Numbered from the stretch's first letter, positions 46,318 to 46,689 are shown. The stretch: DNA of 64,000 nt from Escherichia coli (GCF_003334815.1 NZ_QOWO01000012.1), one strand, 5' to 3'. A program made the numbers and translations. Notes: generated from the sequence alone by a model not told the origin.

Positions 46318-46468
46318 AACTTTGCCTCAGGCATTAGAAATAGCGCGTTATTGTACACGGATTAATCGCACTACAAAACAGGATCACAAACATCCTCCGC
46401 AAACAAGTATTGCAGAGTCCCTTTGTGATCGCTTTCACGGAGCATAAAAAGGGTTATCCAAAGGTCAT

Positions 46469-46558
46469 TGCACCAACATGGTGCTTAATGTTTCCATTGA
46501 AGCACTATATTGGTGCAACATTCACATCGTGGTGCAGCCCTTTTGCACGATGGTGCGC
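46469..46558. promoter_or_regulatory. NtrC (GlnG) enhancer-like binding sites upstream of glnA
   Basis: Repeated TGCACC-N-GGTGCA-type dyads: tgcaccaacatggtgc, gcactatattggtgca, tggtgcagcccttttgcacgatggtgcgca. Confidence 0.8.
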
Positions 46559-46590
46559 ATGATAACGCCTTTTAGGGGCAATTTAAAAGT

Positions 46591-46606
46591 TGGCACAGAT
46601 TTCGCT
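46591..46606 (+). promoter_or_regulatory. sigma54 promoter glnAp2 (-24 GG / -12 GC)
   Basis: tggcacagatttcgct fits TGGCAC-N5-TTGCW, about 85 nt upstream of the glnA ATG. Confidence 0.85.
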
Positions 46607-46689
46607 TTATCTTTTTTACGGCGACACGGCCAAAATAATTGCAGATTTCGTTACCACGACGACCATGACCAATCCAGGAGAGTTAAAGT

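Follow-up and report, generated by a model that had tools for sequence, protein, structure and literature searches.

The glnA control region

The 372-base-pair (bp) intergenic spacer at 46318–46689 of Escherichia coli contig NZ_QOWO01000012.1 (assembly GCF_003334815.1) is almost certainly the control region of glnALG, made up of an NtrC enhancer, a sigma-54 promoter (glnAp2) and a CRP-dependent promoter (glnAp1). We studied it within a window of 64,000 nucleotides (nt), to which all coordinates refer. The spacer lies between a minus-strand open reading frame (ORF) of 607 amino acids (aa; 44494–46317) and a plus-strand ORF of 469 aa (46690–48099), and RefSeq annotation of identical DNA gives the gene order typA (bipA), glnA, glnL and glnG. 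Megablast recovered the spacer from 5426 of 5426 complete E. coli genomes, with one copy in each, and no feature is annotated beneath it among the E. coli matches listed.

Both the spacer and the whole of 46000–48400 are exact substrings of the K-12 MG1655 genome (100 per cent identity). Because the spacer is exact in K-12, what has been published on glnA control in K-12 transfers to it base for base. A preliminary description of this DNA had called the region known biology, and we agree: the sequence is identical to K-12, the positions match published sites, and the feature is a textbook control region already known in full. Bacterial enhancers and activation through sigma-54 both have their founding example here, so there is no new biology in rediscovering the locus. 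What we computed is the sequence identity, the quality of the motifs, their architecture, how well sites and spacing are conserved, and the status of the ORF; protein binding, promoter positions and mechanism come from papers on this same sequence.

The sigma-54 promoter

The elements on the promoter side of the region are as follows.
46590–46606, plus strand: glnAp2 sigma-54 -24/-12 element TTGGCACAGATTTCGCT, with GG at 46592–46593, GC at 46604–46605 and a predicted +1 at 46617
46617–46689, plus strand: glnA 5' untranslated region (UTR) from glnAp2, with the Shine–Dalgarno (SD) sequence GGAG at 46677–46680
46690–48099, plus strand: glnA, glutamine synthetase, 469 aa (ORF list; RefSeq annotation on identical DNA)

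A TGGCAC-N5-TCGCT promoter had been placed about 85 nt before the glnA ATG, and this was borne out. The sequence at 46591–46606 is TGGCAC-AGATT-TCGCT, with one mismatch to TGGCAC-N5-TTGCW, and the ATG at 46690 lies 84 nt past the end of the element and 73 nt past the predicted start. Its GG and GC doublets are ten bases apart, which is the spacing for membership in the sigma-54 class. TTGGCACAGATTTCGCT is identical to entry OS37 in a sigma-54 chromatin immunoprecipitation sequencing (ChIP-seq) study (Bonocora et al., PMC4591121), where it is assigned to glnA with a fold-above-threshold (FAT) value of 21, a distance of 73 nt and confirmation in EcoCyc. Since the predicted start of OS37 is 73 nt from glnA, +1 falls at 46617. 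In the literature on the identical sequence, glnA also goes up 6.9 log2 upon sigma-54 overexpression, and a supplementary table of PMC4591121 shows that the matrix score of the glnA site is high in most of 21 genomes.

We built one sigma-54 matrix from 41 other intergenic ChIP sites and another from 133 ChIP sites, leaving out both sites that fall within the window. Scored with the 133-site matrix, glnAp2 reaches 15.9 bits, beats 79 per cent of the training sites, ranks second of 127,968 positions and stands more than 2 bits ahead of the next match.

The single position above glnAp2, and the best sigma-54 match of the window, is CTGGCGCGAATTCTGCA (23017–23033, plus strand; 17.5–18.3 bits). It is identical to the ChIP-verified intragenic site IS47 in fdoI (FAT 3), and so outscores glnAp2 while being bound less strongly.

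The NtrC enhancer

Upstream of glnAp2 are two high-affinity NtrC sites, and a related dyad lies on the far side of glnA.
46469–46485, no strand: NtrC high-affinity enhancer site I, TGCACCAACATGGTGCT; centre 46477 (-140); overlaps the putative glnAp1 -35
46501–46517, no strand: NtrC high-affinity enhancer site II, AGCACTATATTGGTGCA; centre 46509 (-108); overlaps the probable glnAp1 start
48347–48363, no strand: glnL operator, NtrC dyad TGCACTAAAATGGTGCA; abuts or overlaps the glnLp -10 TATAAT (48342–48347)

Taking the 17-bp dyad TGCACC-N5-GGTGCA as the NtrC consensus, site I has one mismatch and site II has two, and both match the refined core GCAnnAnnnTnnTGC exactly. Their centres are 32 bp, or about three helical turns, apart. 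Published enhancer centres at glnA are -140 and -108 (PMC5159524, PMC1865078); when the two dyad centres are set to these values, each independently gives +1 at 46617. Occupancy by NtrC is documented by ChIP-seq, with a 71-fold peak at glnALG and a further peak at glnLG, by an electrophoretic mobility shift assay with a glnA probe, and by genomic systematic evolution of ligands by exponential enrichment (gSELEX), with a 97 per cent peak within the glnA–typA spacer.

We then derived an NtrC matrix by palindromic expectation maximization from the regions upstream of eleven other Ntr-regulated sigma-54 promoters of K-12, leaving glnA and glnL out of the training set to avoid circularity. The matrix converged de novo on TGCAC-N7-GTGCA (12.6 bits). 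Across 63,984 positions it placed the glnL operator first (19.2 bits), site II sixth (12.8 bits) and site I fifteenth (10.6 bits). Consensus matching at one mismatch or fewer gave two hits against 0.21 expected; these are site I and the glnL operator, on either side of glnA. The operator named in the preliminary description for comparison is therefore present, has a single mismatch to the consensus and is the top NtrC match of the window, at coordinates one base below the 48348–48364 given there.

Conservation of the sites and their spacing

Orthologous regions were collected with a plain-pattern scan that used a 19-mer around the -24/-12 element and returned 101 genome loci across Enterobacterales. 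The N-terminus of GlnA lay downstream in 78 of these, and 37 relatives, 75–93 per cent identical to E. coli, were left after a 93 per cent redundancy filter. All mean identities below are to E. coli across these 37.

The half-site pentamers of sites I and II are conserved at 0.97 and 0.98. Mean identity is 0.77 in the central 7 bp of site I, 0.58 in the DNA between the CRP site and site I, and 0.57 in the spacer between sites I and II. The distance between sites I and II is the same in 36 of the 37 relatives, and that from site II to the promoter in 34; the length from promoter to ATG equals that of E. coli in just one. Spacing is constrained exactly where the looping model requires.

Past the promoter, 46607–46646 is hypervariable and rich in indels, with an insertion after 46636 in nearly all relatives. 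Just upstream of the SD sequence comes a CA-rich block, TTCGTTACCACGACGACCATGACCAATCC (46647–46676), which is conserved and unstructured. The alignment of the relatives yielded no consensus RNA structure in the glnA 5' UTR.

Low-affinity sites

Three weak NtrC sites have been published at glnA, at -89, -66 and -45 (PMC5159524, PMC1865078), and the literature proposes that sites 3 and 4 are governor sites. They correspond to the following positions.
46520–46536, no strand: low-affinity NtrC site III; centre -89; its sole good half is the right one, GGTGCA (46531–46536)
46543–46559, no strand: low-affinity 'governor' NtrC site IV; centre -66; includes TGCACGATGGTGCGCA (46544–46559), with a good left half TGCAC
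46564–46580, no strand: low-affinity NtrC site V; centre -45

Each of the three has at most one good half-site. The preliminary description had counted at least three TGCACC/GGTGCA dyads before the promoter. Two of these are canonical; the others are degenerate low-affinity sites whose matrix scores are at background (site III -0.3 bits, site IV -6.2/-4.9, site V 1.7; ranks 401–4442, with site V at 401). In site III the left part is conserved at 0.54 and the GGTGCA half at 0.96. Site IV is conserved at 0.88, with 9 of 16 positions invariant, and 46560–46587, which spans the -45 site, at 0.87.

Three linked single-nucleotide polymorphisms (SNPs) fall in site IV, at 46553 (G>T), 46555 (G>A) and 46556 (C>A), in all five of the E. 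coli alleles sampled at 97.0–98.5 per cent identity. They rewrite its right half from GGTGCG to GTTAAG, a natural variation in a 'governor' site. The 95–99 per cent identity class holds about 40 per cent of E. coli genomes.

How far the motifs alone identify the region

Several results weigh against reading this spacer as an NtrC- and sigma-54-controlled region, and we give them together. The density of TGCAC/GTGCA pentamers per 100 bp has its window maximum here, yet as high a value arises in 222 of 300 shuffles; over the real window as a whole the pentamers are under-represented (100, against about 174 in shuffles). Consensus matching at up to two or up to three mismatches gives counts at background across the window, as does matching of the refined core at up to one mismatch. 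Neither the number of NtrC sites scoring at least as high as site I (31 of 300 shuffles) nor the number of close pairs of NtrC-grade sites (24 of 300) is significant. Sites III–V, with motif scores at background, are assigned from published footprints and conservation. The conservation of the sigma-54 element is forced in the orthologue set, which was fetched by that very sequence. Under the 41-site matrix glnAp2 ranks only eleventh, because TCGC in place of TTGC costs 5.4 bits and no training site has a C there. On the supporting side, a sigma-54 element preceded at 40–300 bp by two or more NtrC-grade sites is found just once in the window, at glnAp2, and arises in 11 of 1000 dinucleotide shuffles; the thresholds of this joint test were placed post hoc at the observed scores.

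We dropped the 41-site matrix as too shallow, since the full ChIP table has six bound TCGC-type sites. A matrix scan had been proposed as the check on the region, with background scores counting against it. Sites III–V do score at background; sites I and II rank 15th and 6th, glnAp2 ranks second, and the joint architecture is uncommon in shuffles. The region thus did not score like background, though with one shallow matrix alone it would nearly have done so. We found no evidence contradicting the glnALG control-region model.

The lesson here is methodological. Naive motif counts fail to separate even a textbook enhancer from background; separation was achieved only by taking the architecture jointly, by training on a deep set of sites or by footprinting across relatives, and functional low-affinity sites are not detectable by matrix score at all.

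glnAp1 and the CRP site

Two further elements, both absent from the preliminary description along with the minus-strand ES222 match and the I–II dyad symmetry treated below, complete the upstream part of the region.
46468–46502, plus strand: putative glnAp1 sigma-70 promoter; -35 TTGCAC (46468–46473), 18-bp spacer, -10 TTCCAT (46492–46497), +1 at about 46502
46424–46439, no strand: CRP site TGTGATCGCTTTCACG; centre 46431.5, about -70.5 from the probable glnAp1 start

According to the literature, glnAp1 sits 115 bp upstream of glnAp2 and is weak, sigma-70-dependent, activated by CRP and repressed by NtrC. Subtracting the published 115-bp offset from 46617 puts its +1 near 46502, and the hexamers listed are those we would assign to it from the sequence. 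With these hexamers and this start, sites I and II would cover the glnAp1 -35 and start, respectively. A simple sigma-70 scan of the region called neither glnAp1 nor a typA promoter, and its sole match, on the minus strand, was at chance level; that glnAp1 was missed fits with a weak promoter.

TGTGATCGCTTTCACG has one mismatch to TGTGA-N6-TCACA. Its mean identity across the relatives is 0.98, with 11 of 16 positions invariant, and a classical CRP site upstream of glnAp1 is described as essential for glnAp1 activation. The centre would place it at a class I position for glnAp1 (the series near -61.5 and -71.5).

The only perfect CRP core match in the window, TGTGA-N6-TCACA, is TGTGATATTTGTCACA at 18661–18676.

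Proposed mechanism

Our results are in line with the standard model from the literature on this sequence, in which the elements work together as follows. Under nitrogen limitation NtrB would phosphorylate NtrC, and dimers of phosphorylated NtrC would occupy the -140 and -108 dyads and build an ATPase oligomer. By looping of the intervening DNA, this oligomer would contact the sigma-54 holoenzyme held in a closed complex at 46590–46606; ATP hydrolysis would then open the promoter, with transcription from about 46617. CRP-cAMP at 46424–46439 activates the weak glnAp1, and NtrC over the -35 and start of that promoter would shut it off as glnAp2 turns on. The degenerate sites at -89, -66 and -45 would be occupied only when NtrC is abundant, and would then modulate output or hold it down in the manner of a governor. 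Finally, the NtrC dyad over the glnL promoter (48347–48363) would provide negative autoregulation of ntrBC.

The 77-aa open reading frame

A mechanical ORF list places a frame across these sites.
46478–46711, plus strand: spurious 77-aa ORF; ATG inside NtrC site I

If this were a real small-protein gene, the dyads would be incidental to its coding sequence. The window and five divergent E. coli alleles all keep the frame open, and its ATG is conserved in 24 of the 37 relatives. However, the ATG lies within ACATGGTGC of NtrC site I, and this overlap accounts for its partial conservation. A start followed by at least 70 codons is kept in only 3 of the 37 relatives and the ORF is broken in the other 34: 13 have no start codon at the homologous position, 33 run into a stop within fewer than 70 codons, and indels that break the frame are common. 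The five divergent alleles differ by only 11 SNPs, and those inside the ORF are nearly all non-synonymous (S>P, V>M, VR>LS, D>V, QN>PF, H>N), in strains whose TypA and GlnA protein accessions are all identical.

The translated ORF matches no NCBIfam or Pfam family, no coding sequence is annotated at its position in 25 RefSeq E. coli records spanning the identity range, and the frame enters glnA by 22 nt, out of frame. By these comparative criteria, and given no family and no annotation, the 77-aa ORF is a chance open frame and not a gene, and the chance that it encodes a real protein is negligible. The preliminary description was thus right to treat it as non-coding and to warn that ORF-only annotation would mislabel the region: a 77-codon frame does span the regulatory sequence in such a list.

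ES222 and the spacer between sites I and II

The control region also matches an RNA family on the opposite strand.
46399–46506, minus strand: candidate small RNA (sRNA) 'ES222', Rfam RF02755; full length, 135.3 bits against a gathering threshold of 62, E = 9e-28
46481–46505, no strand: dyad symmetry or hairpin potential across the I–II spacer; centre about 46493; the same as helix 1 of RF02755

ES222 is oriented toward typA; its span takes in the CRP site and site I and reaches the edge of site II. Since the consensus of the RF02755 model hardly differs from the E. coli sequence, the match mostly shows that this is the same locus. Secondary sources describe ES222 as the glnA–typA intergenic sRNA of Raghavan et al., found by RNA-seq; they report that it depends on Hfq for its abundance and is without a Rho-independent terminator, and that an overlapping transcript appears on tiling arrays. 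The current K-12 RefSeq annotation, which includes glnZ, has no RNA in the glnA–typA spacer.

We tested the ES222 structure in an alignment of 38 sequences. Helix 1 is 87 per cent paired, with double changes at five of ten pairs; helices 2–4 are 54–83 per cent paired, with 0–3 double-change pairs. For this candidate from a transcriptome screen, one of four model helices therefore has comparative support. The predicted fold is not unusually stable (z = -1.37). Taken as a whole, the Rfam structure is not supported past helix 1.

These data bear on the idea that the palindromes mainly reflect helices in a structured RNA from the minus strand, be it ES222 or a long typA leader, and not protein sites. 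A full-length Rfam match does span the CRP site and site I, where a transcript has been reported, and an unbiased consensus fold (RNAalifold) contains two helices only, which fall exactly on the palindromes of NtrC site I and the CRP site. Yet the paired columns of those helices are identical in all 38 sequences, and such invariance is the mark of sequence-specific protein recognition and not of RNA pairing. Helices 2–4 show little or no covariation, and site II, sites III–V and the glnL operator all lie outside ES222. NtrC and CRP binding are experimentally documented, and published mutagenesis of the enhancer points the opposite way. We therefore consider it highly improbable that the palindromes serve RNA structure in place of NtrC and CRP.

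In the dyad across the I–II spacer, the helix 1 stem has the inner GTGC/GCAC half-sites of the two NtrC sites at its base and the otherwise poorly conserved 15-bp spacer above them. Measured against shuffles of the inner bases that leave the ends in place, the hairpin of every one of the 38 sequences, which carry 32 distinct spacers, has z < 0 (mean -1.66). We counted 141 Watson-Crick cells in the spacer stem; column-preserving shuffles give 109, with none of 2000 as high as 141, and slid controls give 24–58. This excess of complementarity is suggestive and not proven, as the shuffle controls ignore phylogeny. The reported 5' end of ES222 (46506) is one base outside the hairpin (46505–46481), and a glnAp1 transcript starting near 46502 would not contain it.

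An asymmetry between G.U and A.C cells (38 against 8) is no evidence for the minus strand, since column-preserving shuffles give 47 against 15.

It is conceivable, though we think it rather unlikely, that a functional ES222 is also made from the minus strand here, with the I–II dyad as its 5' stem-loop, and that NtrC or CRP occupancy is coupled to transcription of ES222 or the region upstream of typA. Such a layer would add to the NtrC and CRP sites and not exclude them. The Rfam match, the 5' end adjoining the hairpin, the reported Hfq dependence, and the retention of complementarity in all 38 sequences despite sequence variation, with compensatory changes, all argue for it. Several observations argue the other way: inspection of the sequence and the simple scan revealed no good minus-strand sigma-70 -10 upstream of 46506, the G.U asymmetry is purely compositional, the controls ignore phylogeny, the remaining Rfam structure is unsupported, and K-12 RefSeq carries no RNA in the spacer.

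A more specific proposal, which we regard as unlikely, is that the 15-bp spacer is selected for self-complementarity and not for sequence, forming the 5' stem-loop of an Hfq-associated ES222 or of a distal typA/bipA leader, with NtrC half-sites as the base of the stem. If true, the glnA enhancer would be DNA with two uses, in which NtrC and CRP occupancy gates a transcript in the typA direction, bringing BipA or an unknown sRNA regulon under the influence of nitrogen and carbon status. The dyad symmetry of the spacer and its coincidence with the ES222 5' end may be the only item here that goes beyond the textbook.

At the 3' end of ES222, a weak NtrC-like dyad, CGCAAACAAGTATTGCA (46398–46414; 5.7 bits, window rank 79, centre -211), coincides with a minus-strand hairpin at 46417–46395.

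Flanking sequences

The 79 bp directly upstream of the typA GTG start (46318–46396) are near-invariant in the 37 genus-level relatives, with a mean identity of 0.95 and 57 of 79 positions unchanged; this exceeds the neighbouring typA coding sequence (0.92). The block is presumably the typA core promoter (TACAAT at 46352–46347, minus strand) with a short leader, and no consensus RNA fold was found in it among these relatives.

On the other side of glnA, the 3' UTR (48103–48296, plus strand) corresponds to the annotated K-12 sRNA GlnZ. It contains an element resembling repetitive extragenic palindromic (REP) sequences (a sub-threshold naRNA4 match at 48141–48201), and its end is a terminator hairpin with a T-run, at about 48273–48299. 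The glnA–glnL spacer is 285 bp here and in K-12 and 318 bp in strain E2865, so the length of GlnZ is polymorphic in E. coli.

Comparison with known systems

Compared with E. coli K-12 MG1655, the spacer shows no difference, though the larger interval 44494–50855 is not an exact string match, so this is probably a strain other than MG1655. The K-12 glnAp1/glnAp2 region of glnALG has the same site positions (-140, -108, -89, -66 and -45), the same sigma-54 element, a +1 at 73 nt from the ATG, glnAp1 115 bp upstream, the CRP site and the same flanking genes.

The operator at glnLp, a promoter known to be negatively controlled by NtrC, belongs to the same 17-bp dyad family as the glnA enhancer. 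Unlike the enhancer, it is a single site over a sigma-70 -10 and start, with a repressor role only.

A close parallel in design is glnHp1/glnHp2 of the E. coli glutamine transporter operon. Like glnA, it has tandem sigma-70 and sigma-54 promoters with NtrC dyads upstream of the sigma-54 promoter, which the de novo matrix centres near -134 and -108, and CRP activates p1 and represses p2 in both. It differs in that glnHp1, unlike glnAp1, is without an obvious CRP site, and in that CRP raises total output there and does not lower it. The glnH sigma-54 element, CTGGCACGATTTTTTCA, is also distinct from that of glnAp2.

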